Translations under genes and position numbers: made by a program
The notes under the pieces: generated by a model
Databases searched by the model: none
The model's input: only the letters and a program-made list of their open reading frames with translations
What the model was told of the DNA's origin: nothing
NCBI GenBank assembly: GCA_003514005.1
Contig: DOSJ01000022.1
Span: 13,804 to 77,803, forward strand
Source of the DNA: Candidatus Falkowbacteria bacterium
GTDB lineage: Bacteria; Patescibacteriota; Patescibacteriia; Patescibacteriales; UBA12075
DNA: 64,000 nt
Reading direction: 5' to 3'
Shown: piece by piece, positions 13,727-48,816 of the stretch
Position numbering within the stretch: the first letter of the stretch is position 1
Layout: the number at the start of each line of letters is the position of its first letter

Positions 13727-13760
13727 TAATCAATTTGAAATATAAAAAATTGTTTTACTT

Positions 13761-13830
13761 GTCATTCCCGCGTAGGCGGGAATCCAGGGTTTATCTCTCG
13801 AATCTGGATTCCCGCCTACGCGGGAATGAC
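13761..13830. repeat. perfect 25-bp inverted repeat (GTCATTCCCGCGTAGGCGGGAATCC / revcomp) with 20-nt spacer
   Basis: Arms 13761-13785 and 13806-13830 are exact reverse complements. Core is ATTCCC-N8-GGGAAT. Same GTCATT...ATGAC family as 28621-28718 and 34660-34777. Confidence 0.9.
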
Positions 13831-13899
13831 AGAAAATGAGTTTTTCTCAAGTCTCAATTTCAAAATTTCTCAACTTCAAACAAGCTGTTTACTCTAAAT

Positions 13900-14148
13900 T
13901 TAATACTTTGACAATACATCTCTAACATCATCCTCACCATGTCCCCCGCCAGTCAAAACCGGCTTACCATTTATAGCGAGTACCGGGCTAGTCATAACTC
14001 CCATTTCAATCATTTTTGTAACATCGGTAATGTATTCGACCTCTGTATCAATTTTTAATTCTGCGGCAATTTTTTTGGTTGTTTCGTATAGCTGTTTACA
14101 GGTTGGGCAACCTGAACCAAGCACTTGGATGCTTTTTATTTTATTCAT
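13900..14148 (-). CDS. thioredoxin-family protein (redox-active disulfide protein 2 type)
   Basis: 82 aa, GSGCPTCK CxxC near N-terminus, thioredoxin-fold length. Classic neighbour of ArsP-like permeases. Confidence 0.7.
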   Translation of the reverse strand: MNKIKSIQVLGSGCPTCKQLYETTKKIAAELKIDTEVEYITDVTKMIEMGVMTSPVLAINGKPVLTGGGHGEDDVRDVLSKY

Positions 14149-27040: not shown

Positions 27041-27111
27041 CACGGGATGTAGGAATCGAACCCACGCTAGAGGTTTTGGAAACCCCTGTACTACCATTAT
27101 ACTAATCCCGC
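27041..27111 (-). tRNA. trnW: tRNA-Trp (anticodon CCA)
   Basis: Reverse complement folds as a cloverleaf: acceptor GCGGGAT/ATCCCGT, D-arm GTAT-AATGGTA-GTAC, anticodon arm GGGGT-TTCCAAA-ACCTC, T-arm GTGGG-TTCGATT-CCTAC. CCA 3' end not encoded. Confidence 0.8.
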
Positions 27112-27134
27112 CCCGCCCTTCGCGAAGGGCGGGG
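27111..27134. repeat. GC-rich perfect palindrome CCCCGCCCTT-CGCG-AAGGGCGGGG abutting tRNA-Trp 5' end
   Basis: 10-bp stem with 4-nt loop. Only strongly GC-rich element in this AT-rich region. Confidence 0.85.
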
Positions 27135-27188
27135 CTGGCCCCGGTCCGACGCAATAAAGGTTTACCCCGCCCCTCACGAGGAGCTGGG

Positions 27189-27467
27189 TTATTTTATTTT
27201 TAATCTTTTTAATAATCCTACGTATGCTGAACCGAATTGTTTTAGTTTTTTTTCTCTCTCAAGGGCTAAATTATTAGTCTGATAAGATTCGTAATATATT
27301 AATTCTAGTGGTCTTCTATGTTTTGTTGATTCAACTAGTCCTTGTTGATGCTGAGCAAATCGCCTAGACAAGTCAGAACTATATCCAATATAAAACTTTT
27401 TATCTCTTCCACTGTGTAATAAATAAACATAATACATAGGAATACCATCTAATTTCAAATATCCCAT
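27189..27467 (-). CDS. GIY-YIG nuclease family protein
   Basis: YYVYLLHS...KFYIGYSSDLSRRFAQH matches the GIY...YIG motif pair in a 92-aa protein. Confidence 0.7.
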   Translation of the reverse strand: MGYLKLDGIPMYYVYLLHSGRDKKFYIGYSSDLSRRFAQHQQGLVESTKHRRPLELIYYESYQTNNLALEREKKLKQFGSAYVGLLKRLKIK

Positions 27468-27499
27468 TCCTATTCCCTAAGTACCTATGCCCTAATTAC

Positions 27500-27889
27500 C
27501 TACTCGCCTATCTTCTCCAAAATATCCGGTGTCTTTTTCAAAATATATTCAAAACGCTCAATTGATTTTCCACTCACTTCATCAAAGAGCGGTGTACCGT
27601 CGGTATAAAAAGTATCCATCGCATCACCATAGCGATTTAGATTGTTATCAGTCAACCATTTCTCGATTTTTTCTTTTTGCTCAGTTGTCAAATCCTCAGC
27701 TCCAGGTGGTGCAACATTAAAACTATTATTTTTGGATTTTGTTGTTGATTCGGTTTCCTGTGAATTTGTTTCCGTATTCGTGCCATCAAAAAAAATCTCA
27801 CCAACCCTTTGATCAAGCCACTTTAATTTTGTGCAACCGGAAACAGAAATCATTAAAATCAAAGCAAATATAAAACGACCAATTTTCAT
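27500..27889 (-). CDS. small lipoprotein
   Basis: Lipobox ISVSGC after an N-terminal signal peptide. Confidence 0.4.
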   Translation of the reverse strand: MKIGRFIFALILMISVSGCTKLKWLDQRVGEIFFDGTNTETNSQETESTTKSKNNSFNVAPPGAEDLTTEQKEKIEKWLTDNNLNRYGDAMDTFYTDGTPLFDEVSGKSIERFEYILKKTPDILEKIGE

Positions 27890-28611: not shown

Positions 28612-28620
28612 GTTCTTTTT

Positions 28621-28718
28621 GTCATTTCGAAGCGAAGCGAGAAATCTATAATACGAGACTAGCAGGTAGACAAAGTATTATAGATCTCTCCACTCCGCTT
28701 CGCTCCGGTCGAGATGAC
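28621..28718. repeat. GTCATT...GAGATGAC imperfect palindromic intergenic element (family member 2)
   Basis: Left arm TGTCATTTCGAAGCGAAGCGAGAAATCTATAATAC pairs with right arm GTATTATAGATCTCTCC...GCTTCGCTCC...GAGATGACA. Confidence 0.8.
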
Positions 28719-28744
28719 AAAAAAGAGTGTGTGCTAAATCTTAA

Positions 28745-29272: not shown

Positions 29273-29282
29273 ATTTTTAGGA

Positions 29283-29440
29283 TGGTAGGACTGTAGGCTT
29301 GTAGGCTAGTAGCCTAAGCAAAAAAAATCGTACCAAAAAATTAATTAAAAAATAAAAAAAATAAAACACATCCAACAAACTACCAGCCCACAATCCTACC
29401 CGCCTACAAGCCTACTAGCCTACAAGCCTACCTGCCTACC
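29283..29440. repeat. long inverted repeat of GTAGGCT heptad-like units flanking an A-rich spacer
   Basis: GTAGGCTTGTAGGCTAGTAGGCT at about 29294-29316 and its reverse complement AGCCTACTAGCCTACAAGCCTAC at about 29411-29433, extended by further imperfect CCTAC/GTAGG units. Confidence 0.8.
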
Positions 29441-29443
29441 AGC

Positions 29444-30298
29444 CTAACTCTGACACCCCCCACAATAACTAGTCCCTCTCTGTGTCACTTTTATCTTCTG
29501 AATAATCGCCCCACACCTCCGACACTCCTCTCCTTTCCGTCCATAAACATTCAACATCTTCACAAACTCACCTTTGTTGCCACTCGCATCCACATAATTA
29601 TTAAAAGTCGTACCGCGATTTTGAATCGCTTTTTGTAATACTTGTTTAATGCTCTTGGCAAGCTTTTTTATTTCTATATCGCTTAAGCTAAAAGCCGGAC
29701 GGACGGGACGAATGCCAGCGAGGAACAACGCTTCATCTGCGTAAATATTGCCGATTCCGGCGATTAAGTTTTGGTTTAAAAGCAAAGTCTTAATACTGGC
29801 AGTTTTTGTGCGGATGAAACTTTTTAAGTATTTAAAATCAATCTCCATAGCTTCCAGTCCGAAGTTACCAGTAATTTTTTCAAGCTCATCAATCTCTACA
29901 ATCTGCAAATAACCAAATGTACGCAAATCATTAAACAACAACTTGCTTTTATCAGCAAAACTTATCACAACACGCGTATGCGGATTGGGCTTACAAGCAA
30001 CTTGATTTTTATCACTATGTCCGCCGGCAATAATATTATCTTTTTTGCAATACACCAACTGCCCGGTCATACGCAGATGAATTAAAAGAAAATGTTTTTT
30101 ATCTGCCAACCAAAAAATAATCAGCTTACCCCGCCGTTCAATCTGGATAATTTTATTATACTGCAAAACAGTTAAAAAGTCATTAAACTTACCTTTAACA
30201 ATTCTTTTCAACAAAACCTCAACCTGAACTATTTTTTTACCAATAATCCTATCACGCAAATCGCGCACTATGGTTTCAACTTCAGGAAGCTCTGGCAT
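29444..30298 (-). CDS. mutM: formamidopyrimidine-DNA glycosylase (Fpg/Nei family)
   Basis: N-terminal MPELPEVE catalytic Pro2/Glu3. C-terminal zinc finger CRRCG...CGGCQ. Confidence 0.85.
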   Translation of the reverse strand: MPELPEVETIVRDLRDRIIGKKIVQVEVLLKRIVKGKFNDFLTVLQYNKIIQIERRGKLIIFWLADKKHFLLIHLRMTGQLVYCKKDNIIAGGHSDKNQVACKPNPHTRVVISFADKSKLLFNDLRTFGYLQIVEIDELEKITGNFGLEAMEIDFKYLKSFIRTKTASIKTLLLNQNLIAGIGNIYADEALFLAGIRPVRPAFSLSDIEIKKLAKSIKQVLQKAIQNRGTTFNNYVDASGNKGEFVKMLNVYGRKGEECRRCGAIIQKIKVTQRGTSYCGGCQS

Positions 30299-30667: not shown

Positions 30668-30847
30668 ATGGGTGGATATTTGACAGATTTTTGTTCTGTC
30701 AATTTTTAATTAATATTTATAATTTTATTTATCTATCACCAAGGTACTTAGTTGATTAGTTAATTAGGAATTAAATAAATTAGAAATGGCGATTTTAACA
30801 GGCTCCTCTCCCTATTCCCCAATTAACTAATTACCCAATTAACTAAA

Positions 30848-31093
30848 TCAATTATTTTTCGTAAGTTCCAAAACTAATTTCTTTATCATCTCGCTTTTTT
30901 TGCGTGATCCGCAGGAATCAAGGCAACTGACAAAATTTTCTTCGATATATTTGTTTGTCAGCGAATTAAGCGCCGACTTGACTGCTTTCATCTGAACAAT
31001 AACCGAAAAACAATCTTTTTTTTCTTCGATCATTCGATTGATGCCATTCAACTGGCCGATAATATTATTGATTAACTGTTCTTGTGTCTTCAT
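30848..31093 (-). CDS. CsoR/RcnR-family metal-sensing repressor
   Basis: 81-aa helical protein with Cys/His spacing typical of DUF156 metal-sensing repressors. Confidence 0.55.
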   Translation of the reverse strand: MKTQEQLINNIIGQLNGINRMIEEKKDCFSVIVQMKAVKSALNSLTNKYIEENFVSCLDSCGSRKKSEMIKKLVLELTKNN

Positions 31094-32823: not shown

Positions 32824-33096
32824 ATGGATGACAACAAAACAAAAGCATTAATCAATTTTAAAAAAGCCTCTACTCTTCTTAGTCGTATCATAAAAATGAC
32901 CGAAGACAAAGAATATTGCATCGACATAATGCAACAAAATCTAGCCGTGATCGGACTCTTAAAATCAGCACATCAGATGCTAATGGAAAACCATTTGAAT
33001 ACATGTTTCAAAAACGCAATGGCGAGCAAGAATGAAAAGACGAAGCAGGATATGATTGAGGAGATTTTGAAAGTTACAAAGTTGGCTAATAAATAA
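32824..33096 (+). CDS. CsoR-family copper-sensing repressor
   Basis: 90-aa helical protein with conserved Cys (YCIDIM) and a later H/C pair. Directly upstream of copper export genes. Confidence 0.6.
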   Translation: MDDNKTKALINFKKASTLLSRIIKMTEDKEYCIDIMQQNLAVIGLLKSAHQMLMENHLNTCFKNAMASKNEKTKQDMIEEILKVTKLANK

Positions 33097-34643: not shown

Positions 34644-34659
34644 TTCACTAATATATTTT

Positions 34660-34777
34660 GTCATTCCGTAGCGAAGCGAAGGAATCCCTTATACTCTTAT
34701 AACATATCTAAATAATTCAAAAAAGATAATATTATTTAAAACCTTTAAGGGATCTCTCCGCTTCGCTGCGAGATGAC
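34660..34777. repeat. GTCATT...GAGATGAC imperfect palindromic intergenic element (family member 3)
   Basis: Left arm GTCATTCCGTAGCGAAGCGAAGGAATCCCTT, right arm AAGGGATCTCTCCGCTTCGCTGCGAGATGAC. Its 3' end supplies the annotated ATG of copA. Confidence 0.8.
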
Positions 34778-36962
34778 AAAAAATTATATGATATCAACAA
34801 AACTAAACATCGCCGGCATGCACTGCGCATCCTGTGCGAGTAATATAAAAATCGCTTTGGAAAAAGAAAAAGCGGTTAAATCGGCAACTGTAAATTTTGC
34901 TTTGAAAAATGCCGAAGTGGTTTATGATGAAAAAAATCTGACACTAGACCAGATAAAAGATATAATTCAAAAAACCGGTTACACAGTAATTGAAAATAAT
35001 GAAATCGAAAAATCGGAAATTCTAGCCGCAAAAGCTGATGCTGCACTAAAATTAAAAACAATCCTCGCTCTAATACTTTCCGCTCCGCTCATAGTCAGTA
35101 TGTTCTGGATGTACAAAATTCCAGGTTCGTTTCTTGGAGTAATGTCAACTCATTGGCTGCATCACAACTTGGCATTCATTGTCGTATTTATCCTTGGCTG
35201 GCAATTTCACGCTAACGCCTGGCGCGCCTTGATGAATAAACAAAGCGATATGGATACGCTTATTTCAGTTGGCACGCTGTCGGCATATTTTTTCAGCGTG
35301 TACGCAATGTTCACAGGCGGTGATATTTATTTTGAAGGCGCGGCCACAATTACTGCTTTAATTCTACTTGGCCGATACATGGAGCTAAAGACAAAAAATC
35401 GCAGTATGTCTGCTTTAAAAAAACTAATGGAACTTGGCGTAAAGTCTGCAACTATCATAAATGAAAATGGCAAAGAAGAAAAAAGAGATCTAAAAGAAAT
35501 AAATATCGGCGATACGCTTCTGATTCGCCCTGGCGACAAAATTCCTTTGGATGGTATCATAACGAGCGGCTCAACTACCATCGACGAATCTATGCTGACC
35601 GGCGAAGCGATCCCTGTCACAAAAGAAAACGGACAAGAGGTTTTTGCCGCCACTATCAATCTGGATGGCATAATTAAAATCAAAGTAAACAAGAATGGCG
35701 AAGATACTGTTTATTCGCAAATAATTAAATCGGTCGAAGATGCGCAAAAATACAAGGCACCGATCCAAAAACTAGCCGACAAGATTGCCGCAATTTTCGT
35801 ACCAGTCGTTATCGTTATTGCCGCACTTACTTTTATCTTTACTTGGCTAGTCGTTGGCGATGTCGGCGTTGCAGTTTTGCGCGCGATTAGCGTCCTTATA
35901 ATATCTTGTCCTTGCGCGCTTGGCATAGCCACACCGATCGCTATTCTTGTGGGTTCAAGCGTAGGCGCAAAGAACGGAATACTCATTAAAAATGGCGAAA
36001 GTTTTGAAAAAGCGCAAAATATTACGACCGCGGTTTTTGACAAGACTGGCACACTGACCCTAGGTAAACCAGAAATCAAGGAAATTATTTCTACAAACGA
36101 CAGTATATACTCCAATGACAAAATATTAAAACTGGCAAAAAGTCTGGCAAAAAATTCCAGCCATCCCCTTTCACAGGCAATAAATAATTATGAAGCTAAA
36201 ATAGAGCTGGCAGAGATTGATAATTTCCTAGAAATCAGCGGACATGGACTGACTGGTACTTGCAAAACGCATGGCACGCAAATCCTGCTCGGAAACTACA
36301 AATTGCTCAAAGAAAAAAGCGTTAGCCGTGAATGGGCCAAAACGCTGGTTGAAAAATACAAAGAATCGGAATACACAATCCTCTTTGTCGGACACGGCAT
36401 AGAAATTGCCGGCGCCATACTCTTGGCTGACAAGATCAAAGAGAATAGCCGCGCCGCGCTCGATGCCATAAAAAATCTTGGAATAAGATCGGTTATTATT
36501 TCCGGCGACAACAAAAATTCAGTAGCAACAGTCGCAAACAATCTCGGCGTTACAGATTATCTGGCTGAAGTATTACCAAACAAAAAGCAAGCAGAAGTAA
36601 AAAAAATCCAATCCCAAAACGAAAAAGTCCTTTTCGCCGGCGATGGCATTAACGACGCTCCGGCACTTGTCCAAGCCGACCTTGGCATCGCTATGGCAAG
36701 CGGCACCGATATTGCCAAAGAGGCAGGCGATATCGTTATTCTAAAAAACGACCCCGAGAAAATCGTCTTTGCCATCCGCCTCTCCCGTCTAACTTTTTCG
36801 ATCATAAAACAAAACCTCTTCTGGGCATTCTTTTACAATACAATCGCAATCCCCTTCGCCGTCTTTGGCCTTGTCAGTCCAATGGTCGCGGCGCTCGCTA
36901 TGGGATTGTCAGATGTGACAGTGATCGGGAATGCACTCCGGATCTATCGGATTAGAAAATAA
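34773..36962 (+). CDS. copA: copper-translocating P1B-type ATPase
   Basis: N-terminal HMA (GMHCASCA), CPC motif in TM6 (SCPCALG), DKTGTLT phosphorylation site, GDGINDAP hinge. True start may be the Met at 34788. Confidence 0.9.
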   Translation: MTKNYMISTKLNIAGMHCASCASNIKIALEKEKAVKSATVNFALKNAEVVYDEKNLTLDQIKDIIQKTGYTVIENNEIEKSEILAAKADAALKLKTILALILSAPLIVSMFWMYKIPGSFLGVMSTHWLHHNLAFIVVFILGWQFHANAWRALMNKQSDMDTLISVGTLSAYFFSVYAMFTGGDIYFEGAATITALILLGRYMELKTKNRSMSALKKLMELGVKSATIINENGKEEKRDLKEINIGDTLLIRPGDKIPLDGIITSGSTTIDESMLTGEAIPVTKENGQEVFAATINLDGIIKIKVNKNGEDTVYSQIIKSVEDAQKYKAPIQKLADKIAAIFVPVVIVIAALTFIFTWLVVGDVGVAVLRAISVLIISCPCALGIATPIAILVGSSVGAKNGILIKNGESFEKAQNITTAVFDKTGTLTLGKPEIKEIISTNDSIYSNDKILKLAKSLAKNSSHPLSQAINNYEAKIELAEIDNFLEISGHGLTGTCKTHGTQILLGNYKLLKEKSVSREWAKTLVEKYKESEYTILFVGHGIEIAGAILLADKIKENSRAALDAIKNLGIRSVIISGDNKNSVATVANNLGVTDYLAEVLPNKKQAEVKKIQSQNEKVLFAGDGINDAPALVQADLGIAMASGTDIAKEAGDIVILKNDPEKIVFAIRLSRLTFSIIKQNLFWAFFYNTIAIPFAVFGLVSPMVAALAMGLSDVTVIGNALRIYRIRK

Positions 36963-47206: not shown

Positions 47207-47319
47207 TAAAGATCATCCGGCTTATTTAGTTTTTTAAATAAGCCGAGAAAGCTTTATCCAAATATCTTTTGGGTAAAATTTTCTATTGGGCAGTAGTGAG
47301 TTTTTTCACTACTGCCCAG
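47207..47319. repeat. about 110-bp direct repeat copy 1 (two hairpins)
   Basis: Near-identical to 48715-48816. Contains hairpins CGGCTTATTT-AGTTTTTT-AAATAAGCCG and GGGCAGTAGTGA-GTTTTTT-CACTACTGCCC. Confidence 0.9.
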
Positions 47320-48676: not shown

Positions 48677-48714
48677 ATTCGCTCCTTTGTCATTTAGATA
48701 ATTTATTTTAATTT

Positions 48715-48816
48715 AAAGATCGTCCGGCTTATTTAGTTTTTTAAATAAGCCGAGAAAGCTTTATCCAAATTAGCTTTGGGTAAAATTTTCTTTGGGCAGT
48801 AGTGAGTTTTTTTTCA
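48715..48816. repeat. about 110-bp direct repeat copy 2 (two hairpins)
   Basis: Same two hairpins as copy 1. Together the copies bracket the 47336-48676 two-gene unit. Confidence 0.9.

Follow-up and report, generated by a model that had tools for sequence, protein, structure and literature searches.

The 64,000-nt stretch of DNA analyzed here (the window) belongs to Candidatus Falkowbacteria, a groundwater bacterium of the Patescibacteria (CPR) with a very small genome. The GC content of the window was 37.5%, and near-identical contigs were present in the Rifle aquifer metagenomes. The best-named of the identical proteins came from Candidatus Falkowbacteria. Three of its intergenic spacers hold palindromic elements, referred to here as A, B and C, and one of these contains the core of the Neisseria repeat dRS3. 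This raises the question of what kind of element occupies the spacers, and of what the likeness to a neisserial repeat means.

Architecture of the elements and their termini

The initial annotation had placed all three elements between genes, and each was indeed located between co-directional neighbors: a thioredoxin-like gene and a permease gene for A, rubrerythrin and desulfoferrodoxin genes for B, and the genes for an HMA-DsbD fusion and CopA for C. Element A lay 68 nt past the thioredoxin-like stop codon, and the permease ATG (13696) came 63 nt after it. Element B was found 25 nt past the rubrerythrin stop, with the desulfoferrodoxin start 8 to 23 nt further on, while C was located 15 nt past the stop of the HMA-DsbD gene. 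The coordinates of the elements, their termini and a candidate nuclease gene are given in Table 1.

Table 1. Elements, termini and candidate nuclease gene in the 64-kb window; profile E-values are from a search with sequences from outside the window.
Feature	Coordinates	Strand	Description
Element A	13760..13831	none	convergent doublet (72 bp) made of two hairpin units of the SRM/NTS type, 16-nt spacer
A left unit	13760..13787	+	TGTC-ATTCCCGC-GTAG-GCGGGAAT-CCAG; profile E = 8e-8
A right unit	13804..13831	-	28-mer identical to the A left unit; profile E = 7e-8
Element B	28620..28719	none	100-bp imperfect doublet, subterminal repeat TCTATAATAC
B left terminus	28620..28646	+	TGTC-ATTTC-GAAGCGAAGCGA-GAAAT-C; 2 substitutions from SRM; profile E = 9e-8
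B right terminus	28683..28719	-	TGTC-ATCTC-(22-nt loop)-GAGAT-C; 4 substitutions from SRM; profile E = 0.03
Element C	34659..34778	none	120-bp imperfect doublet, subterminal repeat CCCTTA
C left terminus	34659..34686	+	TGTC-ATTCC-GTAGCGAAGCGAA-GGAAT-C; profile E = 4e-8
C right terminus	34751..34778	-	TGTC-ATCTC-GCAGCGAAGCGGA-GAGAT-C; profile E = 3e-6
GIY-YIG gene	27189..27437	-	82-aa single-domain protein; PF01541 E = 1e-16

The arms of A had been described as exact reverse complements at 13761-13785 and 13806-13830. The sequence and an inverted-repeat scan bore this out, and the scan revealed that the perfect inverted repeat is in fact 28 nt long on each side. Folded as single-stranded DNA, the whole element reached -37.5 kcal/mol (z = -12.5), and none of 200 shuffled sequences did as well. 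A single arm also folded into a hairpin of its own, with an 8-bp stem closed by the GTAG loop (-8.9 kcal/mol, z = -4.0, 0/200 shuffles as good). Since each arm is itself a hairpin, element A is a convergent pair of hairpin units and not merely one long palindrome. The dRS3 core, ATTCCC-N8-GGGAAT, was present in both arms, at 13764-13783 and 13808-13827.

The two imperfect relatives reported at 28621-28718 and 34660-34777 were recovered at these positions, together with the arms that they were said to share, GTCATT(C/T)CG.AGCGAAGCGA on the left and ...CGCTTCGCT..CGAGATGAC on the right, with an A-run thereafter. Both B and C were preceded by a T-run and followed by an A-run. As single-stranded DNA they folded at -29 kcal/mol (z = -7.3) and -25.5 kcal/mol (z = -6.3), respectively, in both cases with 0/200 shuffles as good. 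Their single termini had stems of 5 bp (ATTTC/GAAAT, ATTCC/GGAAT, ATCTC/GAGAT), and the resulting hairpins were weak (-2.1 to -3.8 kcal/mol) and no better than those of shuffled sequences. The dRS3 core was absent from B, and C contained ATTCC-N13-GGAAT only.

Comparison of the six termini showed that all have a T-rich flank followed by TGTCAT[TC][TC]C, and that TGTCAT, one C and G..ATC are the only invariant positions. Judged by sequence, B and C are clearly siblings and A belongs to a separate subfamily. The earlier description of a three-member family therefore stands as far as the relatedness of all three elements is concerned, but A is of another subfamily than B and C, and just beyond the edge of the window there is a fourth, A-like copy (L279:16678-16850), flanked by genes for a ParA-like protein and CTP synthase. 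The elements seen thus number four in 82 kb, when the window is extended by about 10 kb on each side of the same contig. The ATGACA ends of the elements gave promoter-like matches, at the rate expected by chance.

A profile was built from sequences outside the window only, comprising foreign B/C-type and foreign A-type copies. When the window was searched with it (nhmmer), exactly the six termini were found and nothing else below E = 0.1, indicating that the window holds three doublets and no solo copies. Rfam, at gathering thresholds, detected only the tRNA-Trp in the window. At E ≤ 1 the elements matched only eukaryotic (plant and animal) microRNA-precursor models, far below threshold, a result that amounts to "long hairpin".

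Element C was also said to overlap the start codon of copA. The ATG at 34773, taken as the copA start by some gene callers, does lie in the last bases of C, but the overlap depends on the ATG chosen: other assemblies call a CopA of 724 aa, which by our reading begins at a later ATG (34788), 9 nt beyond C.

The alternative that the elements are simple transcription terminators failed, since on both strands a T-run stands before the hairpin and an A-run after it. Terminator scans of the window gave no terminator-like site coinciding with any element. Together with the lack of a U-tract after the hairpin on either strand, these scans exclude intrinsic termination as the function of the elements.

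Relationship to SRM repeats and the wider family

In Neisseria, approximately half of the dRS3 copies lie within a longer, oriented 28-nt repeat termed NTS, with the consensus CGTCATTCCCGCGMAVGCGGGAATCYRG, which was generalized to an "Ssn-related motif" (SRM) with the search pattern HGTCWYN(0-2)YYVSBRHN(0-5)WNVSBRGN(0-2)RNCYNB (Chenal et al., 2025, Nat Commun, PMC11893778). The repeat is the substrate of SsnA, a 94-aa single-domain GIY-YIG protein that binds it only as single-stranded DNA and cuts a few nt 5' of GTC; the GTC, which forms the three bases before the palindrome, controls cutting, and for binding no base matters more than the C that follows the palindrome (Chenal et al., 2025). 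In the same study, dRS3 is described as a target of phage integration in Neisseria, and the SRM/Ssn system was characterized mainly in Proteobacteria; Patescibacteria (CPR) are not mentioned in its main text (Chenal et al., 2025).

Both arms of A matched the SRM pattern with 0 mismatches, giving two matches in the window compared with 0.08 ± 0.27 in 100 dinucleotide shuffles. They differed from the NTS consensus at two positions (T for C at position 1, and a T in the loop). As an NTS proper has at most one mismatch to the consensus (Chenal et al., 2025), the arms of A are, by their sequence, SRMs and not strict NTS. The likeness to dRS3 had been regarded as a surprising coincidence. This is not so: because the arms fit SRM and lie two mismatches from the NTS consensus that contains dRS3, the resemblance reflects family membership. 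A 71-bp doublet on a Cupriavidus plasmid aligned to A over its full length, with 83% identity and equal spacing.

The termini of B and C fell outside the SRM pattern by 1 to 4 substitutions and retained the GTC and the C after the stem. Over all six termini, the GTC 5' of the palindrome and the C directly 3' of it were invariant while the stems varied, and the positions kept are those that govern cutting and binding in the published mutagenesis (Chenal et al., 2025). The elements resemble the SRM/NTS-Ssn system in that the arms of A fit SRM, that all six termini have GTC, a stem beginning with AT and the post-stem C, that the repeats are intergenic and multi-copy, and that a gene for a small single-domain GIY-YIG protein is present in the window. 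They differ from it in that the host is a CPR bacterium of 37% GC, that B and C lie outside the published pattern and have weak hairpins of their own, and that the copies here are all gene-less convergent doublets; the candidate nuclease, moreover, is an 82-aa protein without the C-terminal tail, and its gene has no SRMs on its flanks and a fixed place beside tRNA-Trp. The comparison with the dRS3 repeats and neisserial intergenic mosaic elements (NIMEs) is similar, with the core in both arms of A and gene-less convergent pairs also beside the gonococcal ssnA (L282:958-1066). In contrast, dRS3 is only the 20-bp palindrome, whereas here the oriented flanks, GTC and CCAG, matter, and B and C lack the core.

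The B/C type was also searched for in other bacteria, using a pattern for the 5' half only (TGTCATYYCG.AGCGAAGCG) and one genome per species, and at least 120 loci were obtained. The matches listed were mostly from Acidobacteriota, with others from Gamma-, Delta- and Alphaproteobacteria, Chloroflexota, Bacteroidota, Verrucomicrobiota and Parcubacteria, so that the B/C type is spread over at least seven bacterial phyla. Because the 3' half was left out of the pattern, pairing of the two halves provides an unbiased test of covariation. A 3' partner was detectable in 112 of the 131 matches listed, and among these 112 the stem was complementary to the 5' YY in 108 (TC/GA 60, CC/GG 33, TT/AA 13, CT/AG 2); C likewise stood directly after the stem in 108 of the 112. 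The 5' flank was rich in T, which occupied position -1 in 99 of the 131 matches listed.

Convergent pairing was not confined to the window. At 120 loci with A-type units, neighbors within 300 nt were convergent in 14 cases and divergent in 1, and among the B/C-type matches listed 25 pairs were convergent and 4 divergent, forming units mostly of 71-115 bp. Full-text searches with the terminus strings returned, beyond the study of Chenal et al. (2025), only primer noise. Taken together, elements A, B and C are probably gene-less convergent (head-outward) SRM doublets with two or three subfamilies of termini, built from the hairpin repeat known in Neisseria as dRS3/NTS. What is new is the host; the element itself is of a known kind.

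The distribution of the termini over phyla also bears on the suggestion of shared operators made in the initial annotation. Such operators could serve a redox- or metal-responsive regulator, for example the CsoR-type repressors encoded at 30848-31093 and 32824-33096. Three elements do lie beside redox or metal genes, with these two CsoR-family genes nearby. However, they are placed inside apparent operons, downstream of the first gene in each pair, and neither at promoters nor upstream of the CsoR-type genes; the fourth copy has ParA-like and CTP synthase neighbors, and the same termini are met in Acidobacteriota, Proteobacteria, Chloroflexota, Bacteroidota and other phyla, where their surroundings are unrelated. 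Nor do 28-45-nt arms around variable interiors resemble operators. A role as CsoR-type operators is therefore implausible, and we give it next to no weight.

A different possibility is that the hairpins act at the RNA level, as attenuators, barriers to 3'-5' exonucleases or occluders of start sites, with the sequence family being secondary. All four elements lie between co-directional genes, nearly fill the spacer and end 8-63 nt before the next start, and their hairpins are very stable; in E. coli, REP/BIME elements have effects of this kind. Against this, neither strand carries a U-tract after the hairpin or a terminator-like site, and the Rfam matches are generic microRNA hairpins below threshold. 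GTC and the post-stem C are conserved at either end, whatever the orientation, phylum or gene context, a pattern that fits a DNA recognition site better, and SsnA has no action on RNA (Chenal et al., 2025). An RNA-level device is thus an unlikely primary identity. An effect of this kind is likely as a by-product of SRM doublets, since a strong hairpin without a U-tract between co-transcribed genes could alter mRNA stability or downstream translation.

Gain and loss of elements and the candidate nuclease

To follow the elements across genomes, 21 metagenome loci were compared that carry relatives of the permease adjacent to A (73-91% amino-acid identity). The spacer between the thioredoxin-like gene and the permease gene was 3-15 nt long and element-free in four of them (L258, L259, L272 and L274). 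In L260, the same spacer held a 220-bp element of the B type, and a 166-bp A-type doublet followed the permease gene. At another site, L259 carried a 132-bp C-type element, a relative of C in the window. Terminal stretches of about 45 nt were near-identical between B of the window and the L260 element, while their interiors were unrelated; the left terminus of the L260 element had a nested hairpin inserted in its loop. Orthologous spacers are thus either empty or occupied by another family member, which shows that the elements come and go: they are gained and lost at the species level, and the families are common to several genomes. No nucleotide-exact empty site was found, as near-identical strains all carry B, and those with contigs reaching the site of C carry C. 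At the eight element copies read, no target-site duplication was seen, and the T-run and A-run flanks simply prolong the inverted repeat.

These observations accord in part with the proposal of a "small MITE or REP-like family". They are short intergenic sequences that carry no gene, have inverted repeats at their ends and are common to several genomes, and their presence differs at orthologous sites, but they are not classical MITEs, that is, non-autonomous deletion derivatives of DDE-transposase insertion sequences with terminal repeats recognized as double-stranded DNA. Correia elements, Rickettsia palindromic elements and Nezha are bacterial MITEs, and the elements of the window resemble them in size (here 72-120 bp), in terminal inverted repeats, in an intergenic or start-adjacent location and in the donation of start codons or promoter-like hexamers. 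Unlike these, the elements here have no target-site duplication and no DDE parent; their T-run and A-run flanks are inverted, not direct, and each end is internally paired and covaries through compensatory changes, a property not required of terminal repeats that are recognized as duplex DNA. No transposase family appeared in the Pfam lists for the gene-called parts of the contig. An origin as classical DDE MITEs lacks support and is extremely unlikely.

REP/BIME elements and the REPINs of Pseudomonas and E. coli are closer in architecture, with two inverted palindromic units forming one long hairpin, an intergenic location and no target-site duplication. For REPINs and their RAYT enzymes, too, recognition is thought to be as single-stranded hairpins, and the enzyme gene is single-copy and possibly domesticated. 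If the elements were themselves of this type, the doublets would be mobilized by a RAYT (HUH/Y1) enzyme, or would be PATEs derived from IS200/IS605, and a Y1 transposase gene does occur on a related Patescibacteria contig (L129:4787-5227). However, six-frame translation of the window revealed no Y1 transposase (best E = 0.35) and no RAYT gene, and no Y1 was present in the Pfam lists for the gene-called parts of the 82-kb contig stretch. The sequences are unrelated to those of REPINs, and GTAG is in the hairpin loop of A, as opposed to the 5' end in E. coli REPs. The unit fits the SRM/NTS motif, and the partner demonstrated for that motif is a GIY-YIG nuclease, not an HUH/Y1 transposase. Mobilization by a Y1-type enzyme is accordingly very unlikely.

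For SRM doublets, the partner expected would be an SsnA-like protein. Homologues of SsnA (cd10448) are typically encoded within 5 kb of the repeats (Chenal et al., 2025), and a six-frame search of the 64-kb window revealed a sole GIY-YIG ORF, 1.2 kb from B and directly 5' of tRNA-Trp. The N. gonorrhoeae orthologue of SsnA was recovered from the chromosome sequence as a reference (94 aa, with Y6, Y17 and E64 at the positions mutated by Chenal et al., 2025). Aligned with this reference over 70 aa (E = 9e-16), the window protein showed 39% identity. The catalytic residues were conserved, with the columns for Y6, Y17, R27, H31 and E64 invariant; the alignment covered 74.5% of SsnA, slightly below the 75% cut-off of the published survey (Chenal et al., 2025). 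The window protein lacked the C-terminal tail of the SRM-flanked enzymes, W.R.WK..LIE..N..W.DL. A PDB search returned only two UPF0213 GIY-YIG structures (E ~1e-4), which are uninformative for the subfamily.

The window gene is not flanked by SRMs, the nearest being B. In each of the Patescibacteria loci examined, its orthologue stood immediately 5' of tRNA-Trp, and most of these loci had no SRM within 10 kb. A tight SRM-gene-SRM unit was also considered for this gene and rejected, as the orthologues in L129, L130, L131 and L132 had no SRM flanks and in L133 one cluster was 1.3 kb off. With its fixed site 5' of tRNA-Trp and mostly no SRM nearby, the gene may have another role. The 82-aa protein is a candidate partner nuclease, and the sole one in the 64 kb, but it could equally be the product of a housekeeping gene with another substrate.

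Gene-carrying units with convergent SRM ends were found elsewhere, at L087:7786-8164 (379 bp) and L036:936-1305, and the protein of the former was about 66% identical to the gonococcal SsnA. In N. gonorrhoeae the NTS copies nearest to ssnA point away from the gene, which indicates that this "autonomous unit" layout is not universal.

Proposed mode of spread and implications

The mobility of the elements and the activity of a partner nuclease on them can be framed as follows. Each terminus would form one recognition unit, in which a 5' flank rich in pyrimidines or T is followed by GTC, a short stem with AT at its start, a loop, the pairing half of the stem and a C. Wherever the DNA becomes single-stranded, as during replication, repair or DNA uptake, the termini would fold, and a GIY-YIG nuclease encoded in the host genome would nick them within the T-run. 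Doublets would then spread as non-autonomous units, in parallel to the dependence of REPINs on RAYT, and units of the order SRM, GIY-YIG gene, SRM would represent the autonomous form. Ssn nucleases are not known to carry out transposition. The full proposal, that SRM doublets are REPIN-like non-autonomous mobile DNA mobilized by a GIY-YIG single-stranded DNA nuclease of about 80-100 aa, which in Patescibacteria has been domesticated 5' of tRNA-Trp and acts in trans on doublets A, B and C, is a tentative one that we hold to be rather doubtful.

With the identification of the elements as SRM doublets, the SRM/Ssn repeat-nuclease system would be extended to a CPR bacterium with a very small genome. 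Several features go beyond the published description: compact gene-less head-outward doublets are common; a single genome can hold more than one distinct terminus subfamily, and these reappear at other sites in related genomes; and a divergent subfamily (GTCATYYCG.AGCGAAGCG...RRATC), outside the search pattern, occurs in at least seven phyla with clear covariation of the stem. SRM doublets also give rise to spurious ORFs and, as seen at copA, to false start codons, and their termini provide a natural set of substrates for specificity tests of new single-stranded DNA nucleases. If the proposed mobilization is true, SRM-gene-SRM units of 380 bp would be among the smallest self-contained mobile elements known, and in Patescibacteria, for which a dependence on DNA uptake is presumed, the enzyme might in addition act on single-stranded DNA that enters the cell.

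The GIY-YIG Gene and Its tRNA Neighbors

The linkage between the 82-aa GIY-YIG gene, the SsnA-like candidate partner nuclease of the hairpin-repeat elements, and a tRNA gene was strikingly conserved. In all Patescibacteria loci examined (the window and the comparison loci named in the table), tRNA-Trp(CCA) lay directly 3' of the nuclease gene, at distances from a ∼10 nt overlap to a ∼13 nt spacer, and rpmG (L33) often preceded the nuclease gene. In the window, 77 nt (27112-27188) separated the two genes, and this space was occupied by a GC-rich palindrome, the only place in the whole 64 kb where a GC content of at least 77% was reached. This palindrome looks like a separate insertion.

A second GIY-YIG gene was found at tRNA-Val. 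The contigs of loci L129 and L130 were identical except for an insertion immediately 3' of the tRNA-Val gene in L129 (L129:2099-2364), which carried an 88-aa GIY-YIG gene and a partial tRNA copy. The free-standing GIY-YIG gene at the tRNA 3' end is polymorphic for presence and absence between these loci. The insertion site was preceded by two tRNA-like genes with the palindrome TCCCGAT-TCGT-ATCGGGA in the anticodon arm, to neither of which could ARAGORN assign an amino acid.

Features of the window and of the comparison loci
Feature	Location	Sequence or remarks
GIY-YIG gene and tRNA-Trp(CCA) region	window 27041-27437, minus strand	compared with L129, L131, L132, L133, L134
GC-rich palindrome plus flanks	window 27105-27188	CCCCGCCC-TTCGCGAA-GGGCGGGG
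Degenerate 8-nt unit arrays	window 29277-29447, 30742-30846, 27469-27502	inverted blocks in spacers
Two near-identical hairpins	window 47207-47256, 48714-48763	22-nt arms, TAAAGATC.TCCGGCTTATTTA / TAAATAAGCCGAGAAAGCTTTA
Fourth element, A-like termini	L279:16678-16850 (contig DMOD01000009.1, at ∼110.9 kb, just outside the window)	GTCATTCCCG...CGGGAATCCAGG
B-type element	L260:2208-2427	enclosed by a longer flanking palindrome, GGTTAAGGTTCAAATGAAATGAGAGAC ... GTCTCTCATTTCATTTGAACCTTAACC

Other Repeats and Further Elements

The degenerate arrays (e.g., CTACCAGC, ∼8 copies) are a second kind of intergenic repeat, unrelated to elements A, B, and C, and were located in the rubrerythrin/fpg spacer, in the thioredoxin/CsoR-type gene spacer and upstream of the GIY-YIG gene. 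The paired 22-nt-arm hairpins, separated by 1.5 kb, probably mark a local duplication.

A fourth element was present where the window's contig extends outward (L279), with GAAGTAA heptamer repeats ahead of it. Its hairpin loops were enlarged to 24 and 39 nt, and the loops thus tolerate insertions. In the B-type element of locus L260, the left-terminus loop held a nested second GTCAT-type hairpin, suggesting that hairpin loops serve as insertion sites.

Possible Effects on Neighboring Genes

Elements of this family gave rise to spurious ORFs (e.g., ...SFPRRRESR... and ...IPAYAGMT...). The ATG of the 729-aa CopA call came from the terminal ATGAC of element C (window 34773-34790); CopA was 724 aa in the calls of other assemblies, a start that by our own reading is the ATG at 34788. 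The thioredoxin-like protein ended early in both the window (13900-14148) and L260, each with an element in the spacer, and its element-free relatives (L258, L259, L272, and L274) had a Cys-rich C-terminal tail (e.g., ...GGGCCSCDNC in L258 and L272). Insertion of the element may have truncated the thioredoxin-like gene or replaced its tail.
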